Below are positions 41,139-64,000 of a stretch of DNA of 64,000 bases, in pieces; position 1 is the stretch's first letter; every line of letters begins with the position of its first letter. This DNA is from Squalus acanthias. Lineage: Eukaryota. The notes under the pieces are model-generated. The model was given only the letters and a program-made list of their open reading frames with translations, was not told where the DNA came from and searched no databases. The stretch spans positions 89,096,001-89,160,000 of the forward strand of contig CM059432.1 of the NCBI GenBank assembly GCA_030390025.1, read 5' to 3'. A program made the position numbers and the translations under genes.

Positions 41139-44100
41139 ATGGCAGAGCCTCAGCACAGGGAGAGCCCGCAGATTCTCCGATGAGGCTCTTGAGGCACTGG
41201 TCATGGCTGTGGAGAGGAGGCAGGCTGTCCTCTTCCCACACACCGACAGGAAGCCGTCGTCACACACCTCTGGAAGGCTCTGGCAGGAGATAGCTGCTTA
41301 TGTGACGGCCAGCACTGTGGTCCCAAGGTTGGCCATCCAATGCCGAAAGAAGTTTAGTGAAGGCTTCAGCAAATGCCATATCCCATCATCTCCACCACAA
41401 GCCTCACGCACTGCTCAATGCACCACACCCCCAGCACTCACCTACCAACAATCTCTACCTATCCCCACTCACACCTCACAATCATAGCTTCACTTCACCC
41501 TCACAACCTTACCACTGCTGCAACACTCACACCCACATCTCACACCTTGCACACTGATAGCTATTCAACTATGGCAGGCACATCACCCAAACTAATTGCA
41601 CCACATGCACTCACACACTTCTCTTTCTCTTGTAGGCCAAGGTCGCATATAATCAGAGAGAGCAGCGGCAGACAGGCGGGGGTCAGGCTGCCATTCACGA
41701 CCTCAGCCAGCTGGAGGCGAGCGTGCTGGAGATCATTGGGCGGTAGATCATGGAGGCTGTGGCAACCGGCGAGGTTGAACCCCTTGGGGACAAAAATGGT
41801 ATGCTCATTCCTAATCCTTCTTCTCACATCCCACTTCCTCCTCATCTCACAATCTCGTCTCACTTTCAAGCTGCTGATGTTGTATGCATGCATATCTTGC
41901 TCCCCCTACCTCCCCTCACCGTAACCCGACTCTTGTGCCTTTCTGCTTTCAGCTAATCAAGACCAAGCACCTGAGCAGCCTGTCCCTGAGGCGATGCACG
42001 AGAGTGAGGGGGGAGAAGAAGAAGACACAGCAGCACTGCATCTGTCACTCGCAGACAATAGCTAGAAACTGGCACTGCAGCGTACTTTAGAGGCTAGTGT
42101 AGAGGCTAGTGTAGTGTCTGCACAGGGTGAGGCACCAGGCACGAGTGGGCTGCAGCAAGGCCAGGGGGAACAGGTAGCTCGGGGGCCAGCTCCCCAGAGG
42201 GCGAGTTCATGTGCGAGCTCTGCTGCACACGACTCAGATGAGGTCCTCGATGGGGCGGCCTTCAGAAGAAGGGTGATAGGCATGCTGAAGAACAACAAGG
42301 CCTCAGGAGCAGATGGAATCCCCACCGAGGTGCTAAAACATGGCGGAGAAGCACTATTGCGCAAATACATGAACTCATTTCTTTTATTTGGAAGGAGGAG
42401 AGCATGCCAGGGGATCTCAGAGACGCCGTAATCGTGACCATCTTCAAAAAAGGTGACAAGTCCGATTGCGGTAATTACAGAGGAGTCTCCCTGCTGTCTG
42501 CCACAGGGAAAGTCATCACAAGATTCCTCCTCAATTGCCTTCTCCCAGTGGCTGAAGAGCTCCTCCCAGAGTCGCAATGTGGATTCCGCTCACTAAGGGG
42601 CACAATGGGCATGATCTTCACCGTGCGTCAATTACAAGAGAAGTGCAGGGAACAGCACCAACCGCTGTACATGGCCTTCTTTGACCTCACAAAGGCCTTC
42701 GACACCGTCAACCGTGAGGGATTATGGAGTGTCCTCCTCAAATTCGGCTGCCCTCAAAAGTTTGTCACCATCCTCCGCCTGCTTCACGACGACATGCAAT
42801 CCGTGATCCTGACCAACGGATCCACCACAGACCCAATTCATGTACGGACCAGGGTCAAGCAAGGCTGTGTCGTCGCACCAACACTCTTCTCGATCTTCCT
42901 GGCTGCAATGCTCCATCTCACCCTCAGTAAGCTCCCTGCTGGAGTGGAGCTAATCTACAGAACAAACGGGAAACTGTTCAACCTCCGTCGCCTCCAGTCC
43001 AGATCCAATGTCATCCCATCCCCTGTCATCGAATTACAGTATGCAGATGATGCTTGCGTCTACGCACACTCTGAGGCCGAACTCCAAACCATCGTCAACG
43101 GCTTCACCGAAGCGTACGAGAGCATGGGCCTTACACTAAACATCCGTAAGACAAAGGTCCTCTACCAACCTGCCCCCGCCACACAGTACTGCTCTCCGAT
43201 TATCAAAATCCATGACGAGGCCTTGGACAACGTGGACCACTTTCCATACCTCAGGAGCCTACTGTCAACAAGGGCAGACGTCGATGATGAAGTCCAACAC
43301 CGCCTTCAGTGTGCCAGTGCAGCCTTCAGTCGCCTGAGGAAGAGAGTGTTTGAAGACCAGGACCTCAAACTCAGCACCAAGCTCATAGTCTACAGAGCAG
43401 TAGTGATAGCCGCCCTCCTGTATGCTTCCGAGACATGGACCATGTACAGCAGGCACCTCAAAGCACTGGAGAGGTACCACCAATGCTGCCTCCGCAAGAT
43501 CCTGCAAATCCATTGGCAGGATAGGCGCACCAACGTCAGTGTTCTCGCTCAGGCCAGCATCGAAGCTTTGACCACGCTCAATCAGCTCCGATGGACGGGC
43601 CACATCGTCCGCATGCCCGATACGAGACTCGCAAAACAAGCACTCTACTCGGAGCTCCGAAATGGCAAGAGAGCCCCAGGTGGGCAGAGGAAACGCTTCA
43701 AGGACACCCTCAAAGTCTCCTTGAAAAAGTGCAACATCCCCACCGACACCTGGGAATCCCTGGCCCAAGACCGCACAAAGTGGAGGAGAAGCATCCGGGA
43801 AGGCGCCAAACACCTCGAGTCTCTTCGCCGGGAGCAAGCGGAAGTCAAGCGCCGCTCTGGGGCAGTGGCAGTGGGTCAGTACAGCAGGACCCTGCCGTCC
43901 TCTCTCAGATGACAGCATTTATCCTCCCACCACTGCCGCTCTGCCATTGCCCTTGCCGCTGCCTGTCGGCCAGCCAGCCCAGACTGCTGCCGCCCATGCC
44001 AAGGTAGTGCAGTCTACAGCCGGGGCTTCTAGGTCCACAGCTGCTCGAGGTCGTCCTGCAAGGCCATCTGCAGTCTCCCCCATAGAAACTCAGCAGCCTT

Positions 44101-44200: not shown

Positions 44201-44477
44201 TTACTTCAGATCGTTTGTGTGTATTGATTTTGGATAAATTTATTAATTTTGTTTGGAATCTTTTGCCGTGGCTCTCACTTCAGCTTTCTGCCCAGGAGGA
44301 CACTGTGATATACCATGTCAGAGGGATGGTGTGATGGAGATGTGGTGAGCAACGGGGATTTGGGGTTTCATTCATTGGAATCGGAGTCGGATGAGGCATT
44401 CACAGACAGCCCATCCGGAATGGAGATTGGCTGTGTAGGGGGTGGTGTGGTAGGGGTCAGCCTCACCTCTGACTCAG

Positions 44478-45743
44478 TGAGCGGGTTGAATCGCTCCCAC
44501 GCCCCTGGTTCAGACCTTGGACTTATTTAGGGGTTGTGAATAAAGATGCAGTAGACAACAGGTTCCGATGAAAGAATTTTGACTTTTATTAAAAGAAAAA
44601 AAGGTAACAAACTTAAAACACACTTAACACTTAAACAGGTTGGGGAACACACGGTACAGGCGAGGGAGAATGACAATATACAAAAACCCTTATCCCTCCC
44701 AAAAATCCCACTATCTAGCTAGGTTTCGGTTTCTGGAGATCAGGGATATTGCTCACCAAACAGGGGTTTTGACAGTGCGAAATCCAGCCAGGTAAGTTGA
44801 TTGCGATTTTGAGGTACTCTCTTTTTGTCCTTTGGGGCCTGCCGTCCCCACGTGGTACCGGTCTGTGAAATCTGTGATGGTGGTCTGGTCGTCGGGTGTC
44901 TTGCTGGAACTTGCTGCTTCTCTCCTCCTCCTGCTCGTGTCGTGTGCTGTAGACCCGTCTGTGTCTTGCTGGAACGTGCTGCTTCTGGAACAGAGCTGAG
45001 AGAGAGAGCTTCTTGGGGGATTGGGACCTCAATTATACTGTTCGGACCCTTTGTCTTTTTCGCGCCAAAACCCCTTACTAAAACGGTTTCGTGTTGAAGT
45101 GAATTAGGTTTCAGTTGAGGCCTGCTCATTCCATTGTCTTGGTTTTGCGGGCTAATTAAGTTTTGATGGGTTGAACTTTGTGTTAAATTGTCCTGAACTC
45201 TCTTCTTACTGAACTGTTGTAACTGCTTGATGGGCCTTCAATTATACTAAATTGAAGTGGCCTTATCAAAACCAAATCAAATCCTGGTCATTGTAAGACC
45301 TCGTCAACAGTAACGACCCTACCAAGTGTCAAATGGCTTGCGTCCTGTCGATCTGTTGTTCAATCGGAGCCCGCATTGTCCTCATGTTTTGGGTTTCTTG
45401 CTGGGCCTAGCACTCCTATCTTTATGCATGTCTTTAATGGATTCTGCGATAGGTTTTAATGGTTCCTGTGTTTTGGGTGGGGCGGCCTTCTCCCAGGGCC
45501 TATTGTCCAAATGTTAATGTTTGCTGGGGCTTGAATTCCCAGACAATGCAATACCCAAAACTGCTATTTACAGAGGTTGAACCGACGTCCTGTGCAGCCC
45601 CCTCTCCCTTACATGTCGACATGTTCTTTTAAAATGCCAAAGCATGGTTTTGGTCTTAAATTCCTTATTTTTATCACTCTGGGGTAGATCCAAAGTCCTT
45701 TTTCCTTAGGTTTTGGGGATCTGCAAATTTTGGAAACTTTACA
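44478..45743 (-). repeat. 3' LTR (~1.27 kb)
   Basis: Starts TGT after the PPT; TATAAT at 45037-45032 followed by a CT-rich tract; AATAAA at 44590-44585; ends ...CA at 44478 (alternative end 44470). Confidence 0.78.
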
Positions 45744-45754
45744 GTCCCCCCTTC
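45744..45754 (-). promoter_or_regulatory. Polypurine tract
   Basis: GAAGGGGGGAC immediately 5' of the LTR start TGTAAAG on the minus strand. Confidence 0.8.
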
Positions 45755-46090
45755 GATACTTTCAGTTCACTACAGTATCGTCCTGGGTGGACAAAATTCC
45801 TGATCCCCGAAAACCAACCTTCCCCTGTAATTCCTAAACTAAAACCCAAACATACATTCCCCTTTAAATGTGGTGTTTTAGGTACATACAGGTAAGAAAA
45901 TCTTTATTTCACAACCAAGCACGGAGAGGGTCCGACACCCCTGCAATGCTTGGGAAAACACATATATCTTTATTAAAAAGAACAAAACACAAAAAAACAA
46001 CAATCTTTATTCAGGAACACAGAATAAAAAAATTCAAACAGGTGTATCTCTCTCCACCTCAGCATAATGCTTCTTCCAAGTCCTTTCATT

Positions 46091-48214
46091 TCAGAACTGT
46101 AGTATTCTGCCCTTTCCCTTGCACTGAGTGCACAACAGGTACAACACTATTCCCAGTTGGCAAACTACGAGGATGTGGGAAGCCATTCTGACCCATGAAG
46201 GGACCTCTATGTTTTCGAAGATGTCCCACCAGGGTGAGACTGTGATACCTTGAATCTCTCTCTCTATCTCGTGTGTTTTCTGTTCTAAATTGTAGAAATG
46301 TTTTTGAGAGAGCTCTACAGCTTTTAGTAACTTGGTAAGGCGTTCTGGTAGAGGGGGAATTTCGTAGCCAAAATGTGCTACATATTTTTGCAGGTTGGTG
46401 AAATTTTGTGTTACAGTGAGGTGAACAGTGGAGGGTTCAGGAATGGGGACAATCCGTTCCTGGGCCACTTGAACTTCTGCCTCGGGTTTAAAGCAGAAAC
46501 TGCTGTCACTTACCGGACACCAGGTATGCTGTCTATGCTGGTAGTGAGGCGCGCTGGTGGTGACACAATATGTCCCACCTCCTATATATGCTACCTGTGG
46601 GGGAACATGGTCTTGTGCCATTACCTCCATGGTACAGTTTATAGGTCTTGCGCCAGCAGCTTTAAACCCGCACTGTGGTTTAGAATAGGCGTTCAAGTGC
46701 TGGGGACACAGTATTATGTGTGCTCCCCGGCTCTGGCACCCGGAGAGGTCTGTACCTGTCATAGCATGCTCCCACTTTATGACATTAGGTGGGACCGCTG
46801 TGAAATGGATGTGTGCACCCCCTTGAATGACTGCAATGTTCTCCACCCTGTATACCGGTGCGGGTCGGGCCGTCCCACCCATGACCAGCATCCTCACCAC
46901 TATCCCCATGATAGTGTGATTGGAACACTCACAATCTACTGGTACAGGGTAGGCTTCAGAGGCTAGACGGAGCTGACACGGGCTTAGTGAATTCTCAAAT
47001 GGGTGGAGGGCTGCGAGGTGCTTGTTGCTGATCCAGGAGGAGACTAAACCTTGCTTTAAATCCTCCAGGTTACTCTGGCCCTCGCCTAGCAACCATGCCC
47101 CGTACAGTACGCACACCTCGTTCTGTGCAGCCTGGTCTGATGCATTCCTGTCCTCCCATATGAGTGCATTCACTGTCTTTGCGTGCCTTTCCAGCTCAGC
47201 AATGATTTCTTTTAAATGGACCGTCATAGCTTGGTCCTCGTGTAACTCTGAGCCCACTACTGTATTTTCATCCATTAAGATTTTGCGTAATTGTGTTTTT
47301 AAACCGTTTATTTGTGTCTGCAATTCTATGTCATCCAGACTGTTGATGACAGAGGATCCTGTATTTAATGCTGTGAATACATCATTCCAGGTTCCCCTCC
47401 TTTGTCTCCCCGTATTGCTAAAATACTAAGTGTGTGCAGTGTACAGTTCTGTTTCGTCTACGTTTGCGAAATCGAAATCGTAGAACTTCCTGAACATTTC
47501 TCTCAACAGGGCCTGGTATAGCTGTTCCGTCTCTTTGGGGCACCACTCAGGTAAGTGTACCTCCGTGAGGTTTAGGATCACGGAAGCTACTGCATAGTGT
47601 ACCCCCTGGTATAGCACCTTTTCGGTTGGCACTAGTACCAGCCCATTCCCTGGTCCCTTGGTGGTGGTAGGGCACGTCTCTGTGTGTGTCCTTGCTGTCT
47701 GGGTCATGGGCAGGGGCTTACGGGCGTGTGCCACGAGTTCAGTGGCCTTAACTGGGGCTGGAGAGGGTGGGACTATGCAAGTGTGTAGGTGGGAATCCCA
47801 TTCCACCCCCTTCCCCTTATCCAGCCATGCTGCGGAAAAGATAATAGATATGCCCGTGGGGCAGGCCTTCCGCGACCCCCACATGCAGACATAGATCCCC
47901 TGTTCCGATTTCCACCACTTGTCCCAGCACACGCTCACCCCCCTATGGTCCCCTGTAATGGTCCGATGGGTGTCGTTCCCCAGTTTCTCCCAGTCAGCTG
48001 TACGGTCCCCCATGTCTCTGCTCAGCTTCCTGAGCCACCACCACCTTCCCAGGGGAATCTGTCCTCTGCAGGTCAGACACACGCGTTTCCCCTCAGTGAC
48101 CCCGACCCGAGTGGCTACAACCTGTATGCTGGGGCAGGGGAGGGAGGTCTCCCCGTAGGTGAGCCCGGTCTGACTGAGTATCGGGTGGAGTTAGATCCCA
48201 GCCACCCTGGCCAT
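46091..48214 (-). pseudogene. env: Envelope glycoprotein, F-like class I fusion protein with N-terminal Ig-like domain (707 codons, 2 in-frame stops)
   Basis: ORFs 47426-48082 and 46091-47323 are in one frame with an ATG at 48214 in Kozak context AAGATGG. Stops are TAA 48193-48191 and TAG 47428-47426. Furin site RQRR|GTWNDVFTALNTGSSVINSL, heptads, Cys-rich region, C-terminal TM. Confidence 0.85.
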
Positions 48215-48221
48215 CTTCCCA

Positions 48222-48582
48222 CATGTTTTGGGTTTCTTGCTGGGCCTAGCACTCCTATCTTTATGCATGTCTTTAATGGGTTCTGCGATAGGTTTTAATG
48301 GTTCCTGTGTTTTGGGTGGGGCTGCCTTCTCCTAGGGCCTATTGTCCAAATGTTAATGTTTGCTGGGGCTTGAATTCCCAGACAATGCAATACCCAAAAC
48401 TGCTATTTACAGAGGTTGATCCCACGTCCTATGCAGCCTTTTCTCCCTTACATGTCGACATGTTCTTTTAAAATGCCAAAGCTTGGTTTTGGTCTTAAAT
48501 TCCTTATTTTTGTCACTCTGGGGTAGTTCCAAAGTCCTTTTTCCTTAGGTTTTGGGGATCTGCAAATTTTGGAAACTTTACA
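48222..48582 (-). repeat. Truncated 5' LTR (first 361 bp of U3)
   Basis: Matches 45383-45743 with about 12 substitutions by my manual count and no indels. Confidence 0.9.
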
Positions 48583-48639
48583 GCTGCCTGCCTCCTCCCT
48601 CCCTCCTCGTCCTCTTCCTCCTCCTCCTCCTCTCCCTCA

Positions 48640-49477
48640 TTGAACAAGACCTGGACTACATTCAGGCTTGGGCTGATAAGTGGCAAGTAACATTCGCGCC
48701 ACAGAAGTGCCAGGCAATGACTATCTCCAACAAGCGAGAGTCTAAACACCGCCCCTTGACAGTCAACAGCATTACCATCGCCGAATCCCCCACCATCAAA
48801 ATCCTGGGGGTCACCATTGACCAGAAACCTAACTGGACCAGCCACATAAATACTGTGGCAACAAGAGCAGGTCAGAGGCTAGGTATTCTGCAGTGAGTGT
48901 CGCACCTCCTGACTAGCCAAAGCCTTTCTACCATCAACAAGGCAAAGTAAGGAGTGTGATGAATACTCTCCACTTGCCTGGATGAGTGCAGCTCCAAAAA
49001 CACTCAAGAAGCTCAACACCATCCAGGACAAAGCAGCCCCCTTGATTGGCACCCCCTCTATCACCTTAAACATTCACTTCCCTCCATCACCGGCGTAACG
49101 TGGCTGCAGTGTGTACCATCTACAAGATGCACTGCAGCAACTTGCCAAGGCTTCTTCAGCAGCACCTCCTAAACCCGCGACCTCTTCCACCTAGAAGGAC
49201 AAGGGCAGCAGACACATGGGAACACCACCACCTCCAAGTTCCCCTCCAAGTCACACATCATCCTGACTTAGAAGTATATCGCTGATCCTTCATCGTCGCT
49301 GGGTCAAAATCCTGGAACTCCTTACCTAACAGCACTGTGGGAGTACCTTCACCACATGGACTGCAGCGGTTCAAGAAGGTGGCTCACCAGCACCTTCTCA
49401 AGGGCAATTAGGGATGGGCAATAAATGCTGGCCTTGCCAGCGATGCCCACATCCAATAAAAACGAATTAAAAAAAAA
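48640..49477 (+). mobile_element. 5'-truncated CR1-group LINE 3' end
   Basis: QDLDYIQAWADKWQVTFAPQKCQAM, ILGVTIDQK; AATAAA and poly(A) end; same family as 16512-16873. Confidence 0.85.
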
Positions 49478-50234
49478 TCCTCCTCCTGAGGTGGCAAGGG
49501 CGGCGCCCTCATGATGGGCAAGTTGTGAAGCATGCAGCAGACCACCACAAAATGGGACATCCACTCTGGTGTGTACTGGAGGGCGCATCCTGAGCGGTCA
49601 TGGCATGCAGAACCGTTGCTTTAGTAGCTTGATGGTCTGCTCGATAATGTTCCTGGTTGAAGCATGGCTCTCATTATATGAGTGCTGGGCACGAGTGTTG
49701 GGGTTGCGGAGGGGAGTCATGAGCCAGGTGTTGAGCGGATAGCCCTTGTCTCCAAGCAGACACTCTCGAGTTTGATGTGGTGGCTGGAAGATTACTGGCA
49801 TACCGGACTGACGCAGGATGAAGGCATCATGGCTGCTGCTAGGATAGCGGGCATTGACCATCAGGAAGCGCTGGGCGTGGTCACACTGCAACTAACATTA
49901 AGTGAGTGATAACCTTTGCGGTTACGGTGGATCTCAGGATTGTTATACAGTGCTCGCAAAGTCACGTGGGTGCAGTCGATGTCACCCTGCATCATGGGAA
50001 GCACGCTATCCTGGCAAAGCCACACGCACGTTCGTCGTGATTCTCTCTGCTCAGAAAGAAGACGTTAGTCAATTTTCCTGGTGTAGAGAGCCTTAGTGAC
50101 CTCGTGGATGCAGCAATTTACAGTGAATTGTGAAATGCTCTTGGTCTGCAGGTCTGGTTGCAGGAGGTGGCAGAGTGCTGTGACCACCTCCTTGGTGAAG
50201 CGGAGTCTCCAAATACACTGCTCCTCGCTTAAGT

Positions 50235-51725
50235 TAGGGGGACAATATTTTCTAAACCGTATCCGGGGACACAGAGGGTGGGAGCACAGCAAAGTAGCCA
50301 GGATGGAAAATGTAGGGTACACAGCATAGTGAGGCAACACTTTTAGCAGCCTATATTTTAATAGTTGTACATATATTCTACAAAGGCTATACAAATGTGC
50401 ATATAATTCCTGCGAATCTGATGCCACACTATTGAAGCGCATTCAGACACCTGCCCACCCCAGTGACTGAGGTCACACCTGACCCCTCCGTCCCCGTCCC
50501 CCCAGTGACTGAGGTCACACCCAACTCCTCCCCCCCACCAAGTGACTGAGGTCACACCTGACCCCGACGCCCCCCCCAGTGACTGAGGTCACACCTGACC
50601 CCGACCCCCCCCCGTGACTGAGGTCACACCTGACCCTGACCCCCCCCCGTGACTGAGGTCACACCTGACCCCTCCCCCCCCACCAAGTGACTGAGGTCAC
50701 ACCTGACCCCGACCCCCCCCGTGACTGAGGTCACACCTGACCCCGACCCCCCCCCAGTGACTGAGGTCACACCTGACCCTGCACCCCCCAATGACTGAGG
50801 TCACACCTGACCCCGACCCCCCCCCAGTGACTGAGGTCACACCTGACCCCGACCCCCCCCCAGTGGCTGAGGTCACACCTGACCCCGACCCCCCCAGTGA
50901 TTGTCGTCACATGTCATCCCCCCACCCCTGACTGAGGTCACACCTGACCCCCTCCCTACAGTGACTGAGGTCACACCTGACCCCAACCCCCCCACACACA
51001 GTGTCTAGGATTAATATACTCACCAACCAGTTCGCCGATCATTATTATTACACAGATGACCAAAGCTATCCAGTCTCCATTTAGCTTGATGTTGCTCTCT
51101 TTGCTTCTGTTCATGAGCCTTTTTATTGTAATGGCAATGGAAAAACCCATTGGATTCGCTGACAGTCTCAGGTGGGAGCTTTATCTCCAGTTCCAGATTC
51201 GGATGTAGAAAGGATGAGCTGTAGTTGATAGTGGATCAGGTCAGAGTGGTCATCTCTCAGTTTATTTCTAACGCTCGAGCTCTTTGGGTCAACACAAGGG
51301 TCAAAAACCAACTGTGAGGACTTGCTGGCGCTGCTGGGGCCGATTGTGCCTGCTGTGCTAATCGGGCAGGCGGCGGACCGTCCAGGTGGCTGGGCCTCAT
51401 TAGCACGCAGCCGGCCAGCTGCGAGGGCTGATTTGGTGTTTGGAAACAACTCGCCGGTTGGGGAAAGGAGGTGGGGGGAGGGAGGCAAAACCGGCCGAAT
51501 GTCCGAACCTGGGGTGTGTGAGATTGACGATTAGAGGGTAGGGGCCAATGAGGAGCAGGGAGGGGAGAGCCTCAGAGCCGCAAACTGATAGCTCAGGTCA
51601 GGTGGGGTACACTTCGGGGATGAGTCTTGTGAAACGGGACTCTTCCGGGGACATTGTTTGCCTGGGGACGCTGTACCTCATTTGGAGACTGTCCCCGGAA
51701 AACGAGGACGTATAGGTTACCCCTC
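50235..51725. mobile_element. Non-autonomous hAT (Blackjack-like) element carrying a minisatellite
   Basis: Ends TAGGGGGAC...GGTTACCCCTC with subterminal GGGGAC/GTCCCC motifs; 8-bp TSD GCTTAAGT/ACTTATGT; removing it restores the transposase frame. Confidence 0.7.
50455..50995. repeat. Minisatellite, ~35-42 bp unit, ~14 copies
   Basis: Unit GTGACTGAGGTCACACCTGACCCCGA(C)n. Confidence 0.95.
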
Positions 51726-58724: not shown

Positions 58725-61700
58725 GTGATGGTTTGAGTTGTGATGGTTTGAGGTGCGATGGTTTGAGTTGCGATGGTTTGAGGTGGGATGGTTTGAATTT
58801 TGATGGTTTGAGGTGCGATGGTTTGAGATGCGATGGTTTGAGTTGCGATGGTTTGAGATGCGATGGTTTGAGGTGGGATGGTTTGAGAAGCGATGGTTTG
58901 AGATGCGATGGTTTTAGATGCGATGGTTAGAGTTGCGATGGTTTGAGATGCGATGGTTTGAGATGCGATGGTTTGAGATGCGATGGTTTTAGATGCGATG
59001 GTTTGAGATGCGATGGTTTTAGATGCGATGGTTTTAGATGCGATGGTTTGAGTTGCGATGGTTTGAGATGCGATGGTTTGAGTTGCGATGGTTTGCGATG
59101 CGATGGTTTGAGTTGCGATGGTTTGAGGTGCGATGGTTTGAATTTTGATGGTTTGAGGTGCGATGGTTTGAGATGCGATGGTTTGAGTTGCGATGGTTTG
59201 AGATGCGATGGTTTTAGATGCGATGGTTTGAGTTGCGATGGTTTGAGATGCGATGGTTTGAGGTGGGATGGTTTGAGGTGCGATGGTTTGAGGTGGGATG
59301 GTTTGAGGTGCGATGGTTTGAGGTGGGATGGTTTGAGGTGGGATGGTTTGAGATGCGATGGTTTGAGGTGGGATGATTTGAGGTGCGATGGTTTGAGATG
59401 CGATGGTATGAGATGCGATGGTTTGAGTTGCGATGGTTTGAGTTGCGATGGTTTGAGGTGGGATGGTTTGAGGTGTGATGGTTTGAGGTGGGATGGTTTG
59501 AGATGCGATGGTTTGAGGTGGGAAAGTTTGAGGTGGGATGGTGTGAGGTGGGATGGTTTGAGATGCGATGGTTTGAGGTGGGAAAGTTTGAGGTGGGATG
59601 GTGTGAGGTGGGATGGTTTGAGGTGGGATGGTTTGAGGTGGGATGGTTTGAGGTGCGATGGTTTGAGGTGCGATGGTTTGAGGTGCGATGGTTTGAGTTG
59701 CGATGGTTTGAGATGCGATGGTATGAGTTGTGATGGTTTGAGGTGCGATGGTTTGAGGTGCGATGGTTTGAGGTGCGATGGTTTGAGGTGGGATGGTTTG
59801 AGGTGGGATGGTTTGAGTTGCGATGGTTTGAGGTGCGATGGTTTGAGTTGCGATGGTTTGAGGTGGGATGGTTTGAGTTGCGATGGTTTGAGGTGGGATG
59901 GTTTGAGTTGCGATGGTTTGAGATGGGATGGTTTGAGTTGCGATGGTTTGAGGTGGGATGGTTTGAGGTGGGATAGTTTGAGGTGGGATGGTTTGAGATG
60001 CGATGGATTGAGATGCGATGGTTTGAGTTGCGATGGTTTGAGATGCGATGGTTTGAGATGCGATGGTTTGAGATGCGATGGTTTGAGATGCGATGGTTTG
60101 AGATGCGATAGTTTGAGGTGGGATGGTTTGAGATGCGATAGTTTGAGTTGCGATGGTTTGAGATGTGATGGTTTGAGATGCGATGGTTTGAGGTGGGATG
60201 GTTTGAGGTGGGATGGTTTGAGGTGGGATGGTTTGAGGTGCGATGGTTTGAGGTGGGATGGTTTTAGGTGCGATTGTTTGAGGTGGGATGGTTTGAGGTG
60301 GGATGGTTTGAGGTGCGATGGTTTGAGGTGCGATGGTTTGAGATGCGATGGTTTGAGATGCGATGGTTTGAGTTGCGATGGTTTGAGATGCGATGGTTTG
60401 AGATGCGATGGTTTGAGTTGGGATGGTTTGAGATGCGATGGTTTGAGATGCGATGGTTTGAGTTGCGATGGTTTGAGATGCGATGGTTTGAGATGCGATG
60501 GTTTGAGTTGCGATGGTTTGAGATGCGATGGTTTGAGTTGCGATGGTTTGAGATGCGATGGTTTGAGTTGCGATGGTTTGAGATGCGATGGTTTGAGATG
60601 CGATGGTTTGAGATGCGATGGTTCGAGTTGCGATGGTTTGAGATGCGATGGTTTGAGTTGCGATGGTTTGAGGTGGGATGGTTTGAGTTGCGATGGTTTG
60701 AGGTGGGATGGTTTGAGGTGGGATGGTTTGAGATGCGATGGTTTGAGGTGCGATGGTTTGAGGTGGGATGCTTTGAGATGCGATGGTTTGAGGTGGGATG
60801 GTTTGAGGTGGGATGGTTTGAGATGCGATGGTTTGAGGTGGGATGGTTTGAGGTGGGATGGTTTGAGGTGCGATGGTTTGAGGTGGGATGGTTTGAGGTG
60901 CGATGGTTTGAGATGCGATGGTTTGAGGTGGGATGGTTTGAGTTGGGATGGTTTGAGGTGGGATGGTTTGAGGTGGGATGGTTGGAGGTGCGATGGTTTG
61001 AGGTGGGATGGTTTGAGTTGCGATGGTTTGAGTTGCGATGGTTTGAGGTGGGATGGTTTGAGGTTGGATGGTTTGAGATGCGATGGTTTGAGGTGCGATG
61101 GTTTGAGGTGGGATGGTTTGAGGTGGGATGGTTTGAGGTGGGATGGTTTGAGGTGGGATGGTTTGAGGTGCGTTGGTTTGAGGTGGGATGGTTTGAGGTG
61201 GGATAGTTTGAGGTGCGATGGTTTGAGGTGCGATGGTTTGAGGTGCGATGGTTTGAGGTGGGATGGTTTGAGATGCGATGGTATGAGTTGCGATGGTTTG
61301 AGATGCGATGGTTTGAGATGCGATGGTTTGAGTTGCGATGGTTTGAGATGCGATGGTTTGAGGTGGGATGGTTTGAGTTGCGATGGTTTGAGGTGGGATG
61401 GTTTGAGTTGGGATGGTTTGAGGTGGGATGTTTTGAGATGCGATGGTTTGAGATGCGATGGTTTGAAATGCGATCGTTTGAGGTGCGATGGTTTGAGATG
61501 CGATGGATTGAGATGCGATGGTTTGAGTTGCGATGGTTTGAGTTGCAATCGTTTGAGGTGGGATGGTTTGAGGTGCGATAGTTTGAGGTGGGATGGTTTG
61601 AGGTGGGATGGTTAGAGGTGGGATAGTTTGAGGTGGGATGGTTTGAGGTGCGATGGTTTGAGATGCGATGGTATGAGTTGCGATGGTTTGAGATGCGATG

Positions 61701-64000
61701 GTTTGAGGTGCGATGGTTTGAGGTGGGATCGTTTGAGGTGGGATGGTTTGAGATGCGATGGTGTGAGTTGCGATGGATTGAGATGCGATGGTTTGAGGTG
61801 AGATGGTTTGAGATGCGATGGATTGAGATGCAATGGTTTGAGTTGCAATGGTTTGAGGTGGGATGGTTTGAGGTGGGATGGTTTGAGGTGGGATGGTTTG
61901 AGGTGGGATGGTTTCAGCTGGGATGGTTTGAGGTGGGATGGTTTGATGTGGGATGGTTTGAGGTGGGATAGTTTGAGGTGGGATGGTTTGAGGTGCGATG
62001 GTTTGAGGTGCGATGGTTTGAGGTGTGATGGTTTGAGGTGGGATGGTTTGAGGTGGGATGGTTTGAGATGCGATGGTTTGAGGTGGGATGGTTTGAGGTG
62101 GGATGGTTTGAGGTGGGATGGTTTGAGGTGGGATGGTTGGAGGTGCGATGGTTTGAGGTGGGATGGTTTGAGTTGCGATGGTTTGAGTTGCGATGGTTTG
62201 AGGTGGATGGTTTGAGGTGGGATGGTTTGAGATGCGATGGTTTGAGGTGCGATGGTTTGAGGTGGGATGGTTTGAGGTGGGATGGTTTGAGGTGGGATGG
62301 TTTGAGGTGCGTTGGTTTGAGGTGGGATGGTTTGAGGTGGGATGGTTTGAGGTGCGATGGTTTGAGGTGCGATGGTTTGAGGTGCGATGGTTTGAGGTGG
62401 GATGGTTTGAGATGCGATGGTATGAGTTGCGATGGTTTGAGATGCGATGGTTTGAGATGCGATGGTTTGAGTTGCGATGGTTTGAGATGCGATGGTTTGA
62501 GGTGGGATGGTTTGAGTTGCGATGGTTTGAGGTGGGATGGTTTGAGTTGGGATGGTTTGAGGTGGGATGTTTTGAGATGCGATGGTTTGAGATGCGATGG
62601 TTTGAAATGCGATAGTTTGAGGTGCGATGGTTTGAGATGCGATGGATTGAGATGCGATGGTTTGAGTTGCGATGGTTTGAGTTGCAATCGTTTGAGGTGG
62701 GATAGTTTGAGGTGCGATAGTTTGAGGTGGGATGGTTTGAGGTGGGATGGTTTGTGGTGGGATGGTTTGAGGTGGGATGGTTTGAGGTGGGATGGTTTGA
62801 GGTGGGATGGTTTGAGGTGGGATGGTTTGAGGTGCGATGGTTTGAGATGCGATGGTATGAGGTGGGATGGTTTGAGGTGCGATGGTTTGAGGTGGGATGG
62901 TTTGAGTTGGGATGGTTTGAGGTGGGATGTTTTGAGATGCGATGGTTTGAGATGCGATGGTTTGAAATGCGATAGTTTGAGGTGCGATGGTTTGAGATGC
63001 GATGGATTGAGATGCGATGGTTTGAGTTGCGATGGTTTGAGTTGCAATCGTTTGAGGTGGGATGGTTTGAGGTGCGATAGTTTGAGGTGGGATGGTTTGA
63101 GGTGGGATGGTTTGTGGTGGGACGGTTTGAGGTGGGATGGTTTGAGGTGGGATGGTTTGAGGTGGGATGGTTTGAGGTGGGATGGTTTGAGGTGCGATGG
63201 TTTGAGATGCGATGGTATGAGGTGGGATGGTTTGAGGTGCGATGGTTTGAGGTGGGATGGTTTGAGGTGGGATGGTTTGAGGTGCGATGGTTTGAGGTGG
63301 GATGGTTAGAGGTGGGATAGTTTGAGGTGGGATGGTTTGAGGTGCGATGGTTTGAGATGCGATGGTATGAGTTGCGATGGTTTGAGATGCGATGGTTTGA
63401 GGTGCGATGGTTTGAGGTGGGATGGTTTGAGGTGGGATGGTTTGAGATGCGATGGTGTGAGTTGCGATGGATTGAGATGCGATGGTTTGAGGTGAGATGG
63501 TTTGAGATGCGATGGATTGAGATGCAATGGTTTGAGTTGCAATGGTTTGAGGTGGGATGGTTTGAGGTGCGATGGTTTGAGGTGGGATGGTTTGAGGTGG
63601 GATGGTTTGCAGCTGGGATGGTTTGAGGTGGGATGGTTTGAGGTGGGATGGTTTGAGGTGGGATAGTTTGAGGTGGGATGGTTTGAGGTGCGATGGTTTG
63701 AGGTGCGATGGTTTGAGGTGTGATGGTTTGAGGTGGGATGGTTTGAGGTGGGCTGGTTTGAGATGCGATGGTTTGAGGTGGGATGGTTTGAGATGGGATG
63801 GTTTGAGGTGGGATGGTTTGAGGTGGGATGGTTTGAGGTGGGATGGTTTGAGGTGGGATGGTTTGAGGTGGGATGGTTGAGGTGCGATGGTTTGAGGTGG
63901 GATGGTTTGAGTTGCGATGGTTTGAGTTGCGATGGTTTGAGGTGGGATGGTTTGAGGTGGGATGGTTTGAGATGCGATGGTTTGAGGTGCGATGGTTTGA
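58725..64000. repeat. 15-bp tandem satellite, ~350 units, running off the window
   Basis: Consensus GATGGTTTGAG(A/G/T)TG(C/G). Confidence 0.99.

Follow-up and report, generated by a model that had tools for sequence, protein, structure and literature searches.

An internally deleted provirus of Squalus acanthias from an apparently undescribed elasmobranch retrovirus family with an envelope core predicted to be F-like

The sequence analysed here (hereafter the window) is a stretch of 64,000 nucleotides of the Squalus acanthias genome (GenBank assembly GCA_030390025.1, contig CM059432.1, positions 89,096,001 to 89,160,000 of the forward strand); all coordinates count from its first letter. Its minus strand carries, between positions 48582 and 44434, the remains of an endogenous retrovirus (ERV), consisting of envelope (env) and long terminal repeat (LTR) sequence and flanked by a 4-bp target-site duplication (TSD). 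A preliminary description of this DNA had recognised a deleted endogenous provirus with an envelope protein (Env) resembling the fusion (F) proteins of paramyxoviruses. The TSD, the LTR pair and a deletion junction present at a single locus bear out the first part, and the predicted structure of a related Env agrees with the second. The element belongs to a family of elasmobranch retroviruses that is very abundant and appears to be undescribed.

Both LTR copies begin with TGTAAAG on the minus strand, at 48582 and 45743, as had been noted before, and over the 364 nt of their overlap 351 positions are identical. The 3' LTR (44434–45743) is complete, with a length of 1310 nt, TGTA...TACA termini and an AATAAA motif at 44585–44590, and it adjoins a polypurine tract (45744–45754), which had likewise been seen correctly. 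The end of the LTR had been placed at 44478, but of 19 other LTR loci, the 18 that are matched at both ends all run on past this position with the same sequence (the remaining one is incomplete), and the true end lies 44 nt further, at 44434. Only with this end does the TSD become visible, as GCTG on the plus strand at 44430–44433 on the 3'-LTR side and at 48583–48586 on the 5'-LTR side. TSDs of 4–5 bp were found at 14 of 19 other LTR loci as well as at the window element (4 bp at 11 and 5 bp at three of the 19, no or a shorter match at four, and a missing terminus at one).

The 5' LTR is reduced to a stub of its first 364 nt (48219–48582), fused into the interior of env. Lost in the deletion are the remainder of the 5' LTR, the primer-binding site (PBS), gag and pol, along with about 50 codons from the start of env, and at the junction (48213–48225) the LTR-side and env-side matches overlap with a microhomology of about 7 nt. 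Among the 40 scored of 2046 genome candidates, the window locus alone spans this junction. Since the 4-bp TSD encloses both LTR ends, the element is one integration that was internally deleted later, at a single locus. A processed copy of a spliced env mRNA was ruled out, because the copy begins at the U3 end and the TSD surrounds both LTR ends. The 13 differences per 364 nt between the LTRs correspond to about 8 million years at a mammalian rate and, with the rate that PMC4422223 assumes for sharks, to about 80 million years (publications are cited here and below for those parts of their text that were available), and this spread leaves the age loosely bound.

The env remnant (46034–48225, minus strand) was read against P0003, a naturally open env from another locus of the same genome. 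In a tblastn comparison, residues 104–816 of P0003 match the window in one frame at 94%, and residues 87–122 match in a second frame. The frame 48214–46091 contains the GLVLVPTEKVLY segment, the RQRR site, the post-cleavage peptide, the cysteine pattern, the heptad repeats (HR) and the transmembrane (TM) segment, all in agreement with the preliminary description. That account had, in addition, one frame with only two stops and a signal peptide, MARVAGI*, at its start. The motif-bearing frame stands, but its supposed first stop and the signal peptide belong to off-frame text: the first ~50 nt of the remnant are read in the other frame and are equivalent to P0003 residues 87–103. The hydrophobic leader of P0003 lies at residues ~34–50, about 50 codons further upstream, and is deleted in the window copy. 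What does interrupt the coding sequence is the 5' deletion, together with a change of frame near 48175 and two stops, one at 47426–47428 and the other at 46091–46093, in the cytoplasmic tail, where relatives continue for 19 more residues. The window copy is a fossil without function and cannot yield a functional Env.

Downstream of the N-terminal arm discussed below, the remnant comprises an F2-like segment of beta strands and a helix (47408–47653), the furin-type site RQRR (47396–47407), which is the sole R-x-[RK]-R in P0003, and an F1-like ectodomain with a putative fusion peptide, a long HR-A helix, Cys-rich beta domains and HR-B (46187–47395), as delineated from the model and the sequence. 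A TM helix (46130–46186) and a short tail, about 31 aa in P0003, follow. The post-cleavage subunit, previously estimated at ~430 aa, measures 453 aa in P0003. The CX6CC loop reported as missing is indeed absent from P0003, which has two CX7C spacings, one of them within the F1-like beta region.

The Env model was obtained with AlphaFold2 on P0003 with 28 alignment rows, and its confidence lies mainly in the core. A Foldseek search of the Protein Data Bank (PDB) gave the F protein of human parainfluenza virus 3 (hPIV3) as the best match (1ztm, E 1.4e-10) and also retrieved F of respiratory syncytial virus and of henipaviruses. VIA-align superimposed 327 residues on Langya virus F (8tvg) with a Z score of 12.7 and a root-mean-square deviation of 6.2, and gave a Z score of 9.0 to foamy virus Env (8rm1). 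The alignment to F starts at model residue 278, from where the F2-like segment continues directly to the furin site. In the ESM Atlas, Baculo_F and Fusion_gly clusters were matched at 0.92. The best matches in BFVD include lispivirus-type glycoproteins and epsilonretrovirus Envs, namely those of walleye epidermal hyperplasia virus 1 (WEHV-1; E 2.6e-11) and walleye dermal sarcoma virus (WDSV; E 2.9e-10); the top row of that search, A0A384ZVF2 (928 aa), is unnamed in the tables. The comparison with PDB fusion proteins that had been proposed with the preliminary description is thus in line with its F-like reading, and the Env core is predicted to fold like paramyxo- and pneumovirus F, a class Ib fusogen.

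Several observations weigh against this assignment. The model is mediocre as a whole (pLDDT 60.8, pTM 0.41), and the sequence identity between the Env core and F is only 8–15%. Pfam searches with 2, 4 and then 28 proteins of the Env family returned no F protein, and neither did phmmer and the 28-row profile against the PDB. The putative fusion peptide is amphipathic, weakly hydrophobic and unusually polar, with a mean Kyte–Doolittle value of −0.2.

The preliminary description had further proposed a short F2 without a large surface-subunit insertion. The F2- and F1-like parts indeed have nothing large between them; N-terminal to the F-like core, however, P0003 has about 240 further residues. 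Within this arm, residues ~122–218 (47831–48121 in the window) display an immunoglobulin (Ig)-type B-strand Cys, a C-strand Trp and a G-x-Y-x-C F strand. Pfam matched the arm to Ig_3 with an E value of 0.016, a profile search of the PDB gave Ig chains in nearly all rows listed, the ESM Atlas returned Ig clusters at 0.88–0.90, and both fold searches yielded mostly V-type Ig chains. Against this stand a pLDDT of only 37.9 for the arm model, a best Z score of 5.5, and listed Foldseek rows that all have E>0.02, none reaching E<=0.001, nearly all of them antibody- or T-cell-receptor-type chains. We consider it likely that the arm contains an Ig-like, probably V-type, domain. The odds that it serves in receptor binding appear even, and the suggestion draws on analogies: IgV-like receptor-binding domains (RBDs) are known on gamma-type Env (10.1101/2024.03.17.585361), and the coronavirus spike carries N-terminal binding modules on an F scaffold (PMC11468914).

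Relatives of the element were sought in the source genome (3.71 Gb, 3882 contigs). The env piece gave 11154 first-look candidates, and all 95 that were scored are 84–100% identical to it, self included; the LTR gave 5700 candidates, of which 40 were scored. Twenty of the 95 env loci were picked by hand for retrieval. Five of them span gag, reverse transcriptase (RT), RNase H, integrase (IN) and env, which provides the longer relatives that the preliminary description had suggested looking for; the pol frames are interrupted in each. Twelve loci have gag and env without RT, one more covers RT partially, and two are without gag. The order of parts in the relatives is PBS(Arg)-gag-TGA-pro-RT-tether-RNase H-IN-env, within an LTR...polypurine tract-LTR layout. 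In the pol pieces of two loci (L057 and L067), Pfam recognised RVT_1, RT_RNaseH (the tether), a second RNase_H, Integrase_H2C2 and rve. The Gag protein has an N-terminal coiled coil, judged by eye, and one CCHC knuckle, to which Pfam zf-CCHC gives a weak score.

At the gag/pro boundary, a TGA followed by CTR stands in frame with pro in 16 of the 16 loci showing the motif (of 20), a sequence arrangement that suggests translational readthrough of this stop. The PBS of one copy is the exact 18-nt complement of the 3' end of host tRNA-Arg(TCG). Two PBS types occur, one in L051, L052, L054–L057 and L061 and the other in L066 and L067, and it is for the one type compared with host tRNAs that the Arg-TCG match was obtained; an ATG in the reading frame of gag overlaps the PBS.

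Nine pol-less loci (L052, L053, L055, L056, L058, L059, L061, L062 and L070) share one replacement after the gag stop, made up of a few pro residues, a piece of 70–90 aa that is 40–46% identical to the Gag coiled coil, and an integrase tail; seven of eight tested break at the same points relative to L051. By their sequence, the pol-less copies appear to form a non-autonomous subfamily that has retained gag and env and multiplied successfully.

Outside Squalus, close Env relatives occur in the skate Rhinoraja and the sawshark Pristiophorus (55–81%), and distant ones in Mustelus, Chiloscyllium punctatum and the frogs Pelodytes and Mantella (21–33%), while RT relatives with 51–53% identity were found in frogs and the coelacanth. 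The distant Env relatives from frogs and the bamboo shark include KAM8960540.1, KAM5193609.1 and GCC29952.1. A search of viral_contigs with the pro-RT piece gave no relative. Contigs related to the family also occur in two sequencing runs that may be of RNA, which counts neither for nor against expression. In three sawshark gene models (P0007, P0008 and P0022), Env pieces of the family are fused to Niban-, cadherin- and zinc-finger-like models; these fusions are probably annotation chimeras. Mantella has many annotated copies, 677 aa long, of a distant Env relative (16 members in the P0055 cluster), which suggests a young expansion.

To place pol, the RT of P0005 was compared by hand with rows of the PMC7947760 supplement, and identities were counted at 153 of its positions, distributed over seven blocks free of gaps. 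Snakehead retrovirus (SnRV) shares 79 positions, followed by murine leukaemia virus (MuLV; 59), HERV-L (59), feline foamy virus (58), Loki-Lch (57) and WDSV (56), so that the family is ~52% identical to SnRV versus 37–39% to the loki, foamy, gamma, epsilon and ERV-L references. The RT motifs are LPQG and YVDD, and the SnRV RNase H row shows, by eye, the same motifs as the family. In an RT tree with unlabelled references and a midpoint root, the family lies in an LPQG retroviral clade together with frog and coelacanth elements, separated by a 100/100 branch from the 31 other rows, nearly all of the PFG type.

The explanation that we regard as probable is that the window element is a defunct provirus with an internal deletion and comes from a large ERV family of elasmobranchs, that the pol of this family lies in or beside the SnRV ('Huo') clade, and that its Env is an F-like fusogen of class Ib. 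Part of the evidence runs against the placement of pol. The placement itself comes from a hand count and motifs, not from a labelled tree. Among the 60 solved RT matches listed, which include no SnRV RT, that of murine leukaemia virus (MLV) scores best (211 bits), above foamy virus (190) and Ty3 (137). The TSDs are mostly 4 bp long (11 of 19), a length given for ERV1 rather than ERV3/4 in PMC4299795. SnRV has accessory open reading frames and an Env tail of 136 residues, compared with about 31 in the family.

Some of these features feed the best surviving alternative, an independent deep anamniote lineage of sharks, rays, coelacanth and frogs that is merely nearest to SnRV among the few references compared, or a recombinant that acquired a loki- or epsilon-type F-like env. 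The 4-bp TSD, the putative TGA readthrough and the short tail are unlike the descriptions of ERV3/4 and SnRV; RT relatives of 51–53% in frogs and coelacanth and Env relatives of 21–28% in frogs and the bamboo shark fit a deep lineage; the best matches to predicted structures include the Envs of the walleye epsilonretroviruses; and env-pol swaps are reported to be frequent in anamniote ERVs (10.1101/2021.11.23.469661). The 13-point identity gap towards SnRV and the matching Gag layout, however, argue for kinship. We hold this alternative, which differs from our explanation mainly in the rank of the lineage and the origin of env, to be unlikely.

The preliminary description had favoured a lokiretrovirus-like placement, which would make the family the first chondrichthyan member of a lineage sister to the sampled retroviruses. 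An F-like Env and dual RNase H are hallmarks of lokiretroviruses (PMC7947760), and excerpts of their Env show, by eye, a similar cysteine and motif layout. 'NYNRIN-like' is the name that automatic annotation gives to the closest RT relatives, and the lokiretroviral IN is reportedly near CGIN1/NYNRIN, but this name is a generic label for retroviral pol. The Loki RT rows in dataset S3 read PFG where the family has LPQG, RT identity in the hand count is ~37% to Loki-Lch versus ~52% to SnRV, and a screen for lokiretroviruses recorded none in six chondrichthyan genomes (PMC7947760, in its available part). Since RT is closest to SnRV by this count, the family is probably not a lokiretrovirus, and we give this placement little credence.

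An env-bearing, errantivirus-like Ty3/Gypsy element, which had also been left standing as an alternative, is highly improbable. F-type env is documented in Ty3/Gypsy elements (10.1101/2023.10.26.564294), the Atlas matches include Baculo_F and Gypsy clusters, and the IN region scores well against Ty3; however, the pol-bearing relatives possess the tether and a second RNase H, their RT has LPQG and YVDD and falls on the retroviral side of the 100/100 branch, and Ty3 RT scores far below those of MLV and foamy virus. On these pol sequence features, the pol-bearing family is a vertebrate retrovirus and not Ty3/Gypsy. Equally improbable is co-option of env by the host at the window locus, where only env and LTR sequence is left and pN/pS against other copies is below 1 (a pooled value of 0.47 from 24 ungapped pairings of the window copy, which are not independent): the signal peptide is deleted, the frame is changed once and stopped twice, no other of the 40 scored matches has the junction, and the low pN/pS goes back to selection that acted on the virus before it inserted.

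For an Env of a retrovirus of the SnRV type with an F-like core, we infer fusion activity by analogy with F and foamy virus Env. The leader would act as a signal peptide and the protein would assemble as a trimer; furin would cleave it at RQRR, exposing the fusion peptide at the new N-terminus (cf. PMC11468914), and HR-A and HR-B would refold into a six-helix bundle. More tentatively, the arm with its putative Ig-like domain might be a built-in attachment module placed ahead of the F core, in a position like that in the coronavirus spike and not inserted as in foamy virus Env. The family may have spread largely via particles that depended on Env, and pol-less copies may have received help in trans.

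The suggestion that the lineage is undescribed agrees with the literature searched, in which no published description of the family, no SnRV-type pol with an F-like Env and no F-like Env in a shark ERV was found; the family may nevertheless be contained in sources beyond the scope of this search, namely Repbase, Dfam, the supplements of bioRxiv preprints and most papers under subscription. Earlier reports of an F-like Env concern lokiretroviruses (PMC7947760), foamy viruses (PMC11468914) and Ty3/Gypsy elements (10.1101/2023.10.26.564294). Wang and Han left four scenarios open for the origin of retroviral Env at a time when the F-like type was known only from lokiretroviruses (PMC7947760), and foamy virus Env was added to the set by cryo-electron microscopy (PMC11468914). 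A shark family that is present in high copy number and combines SnRV-type pol with an F-like Env brings the fold beside the orthoretroviruses, and whether this fold is ancestral or was swapped in repeatedly becomes testable with RT and Env trees. If the Env of SnRV itself is F-like, the novelty is limited to a new host lineage. One could tentatively hypothesise that F-like Env is ancestral in retroviruses (loki, foamy, epsilon and SnRV-type pol), that the short gamma- and beta-type Envs are later replacements, and that the family's own Ig-type receptor-binding head parallels the IgV RBD of gamma-type Env. Two Env surveys covering sharks used gamma-type, beta-type or syncytin queries (10.1101/2021.11.23.469661; 10.64898/2026.05.06.723177), and one of them required an immunosuppressive domain (ISD) and CX6-7C. 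Such queries leave a blind spot, and Pfam fails to recognise the Env of this family.

In the neighbourhood of the element, a decayed LINE RT fragment (48600–49450, plus strand; weak RVT_1) lies beside the 5' LTR stub. A 556-codon open LINE RT frame (42242–43912, plus strand; Pfam RVT_1), which we take to be RTE-like, is located on the other side. A DDE_Tnp_4 (Harbinger/PIF-type) nuclease fragment is found at 49598–49891 on the minus strand, with another frame at 50065–50442 on the plus strand, followed by a minisatellite of ~15 copies with a period of 34–38 bp (50451–50994). From 58727 to 64000, a 15-bp satellite of 352 copies runs past the end of the window; it accounts for the strong G skew there, and a telomeric reading of this end was rejected. 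Elsewhere in the genome, contig C26 carries at ~39–42 Mb (L072–L074) long tandem arrays with a period of ~1.62 kb that contain tRNA-Arg(TCG) and tRNA-Ser(GCT), a pattern with 424 matches genome-wide.

Among known systems, the SnRV/Huo clade (PMC6001957, PMC12193657) is represented by the closest RT among the references compared. For the Gag of SnRV, a coiled coil and one zinc finger are described, like those of the family, and pol follows in frame after the gag stop in both (PMC2717909); the family is unlike SnRV in its putative TGA-CTR readthrough site and its shorter Env tail. An SnRV-related lineage is known in the elephant shark (CmiERV lineage I; PMC4422223), and the CmiERV supplement gave 0 matches to the PBS and LTR-end motifs of the family, where line breaks could mask a match. 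The SnRV-related anamniote ERVs reported so far were picked up via gamma-type Env (10.1101/2021.11.23.469661). Gamma-type Envs (MLV, feline leukaemia virus, EnvP(b)1; 10.1101/2024.03.17.585361) have an Ig-like module at the N-terminus, as the family probably does, but a short class Ia TM subunit with ISD and CX6CC, where the family has an F-like core.

Lokiretroviruses share with the family the LTR-gag-pol-env organisation with tether and RNase H and an F-related Env with an RXKR-type site (PMC7947760). They differ in the RT motif and identity, which place the family outside them, and in their Env model, which in the available part of the same source lacks an Ig-like arm at the N-terminus. A separate smc gene was not seen in the family. 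The epsilonretrovirus Envs of WDSV and WEHV-1 resemble that of the family in predicted structure (Foldseek E 1e-11 to 1e-10) and are described as neither gamma- nor beta-type (PMC3758190), and we found no statement in the literature that they are F-like. They are much longer (1159–1317 aa), and RT is only ~37% identical to that of WDSV.

Foamy viruses have a Gag without a zinc finger, unlike the CCHC-bearing Gag of the family, and their Env carries its RBD inserted between the subunits, whereas the extra module of the family is N-terminal, as in the spike; paramyxovirus F is without such an arm. Despite the low sequence identity to class Ib fusogens, the modelled core aligns over ~330 residues with F and, less closely, with foamy virus Env, and the furin site, HR-A, Cys-rich beta domains, HR-B and TM segment are features that it would share with this class (PMC11468914).

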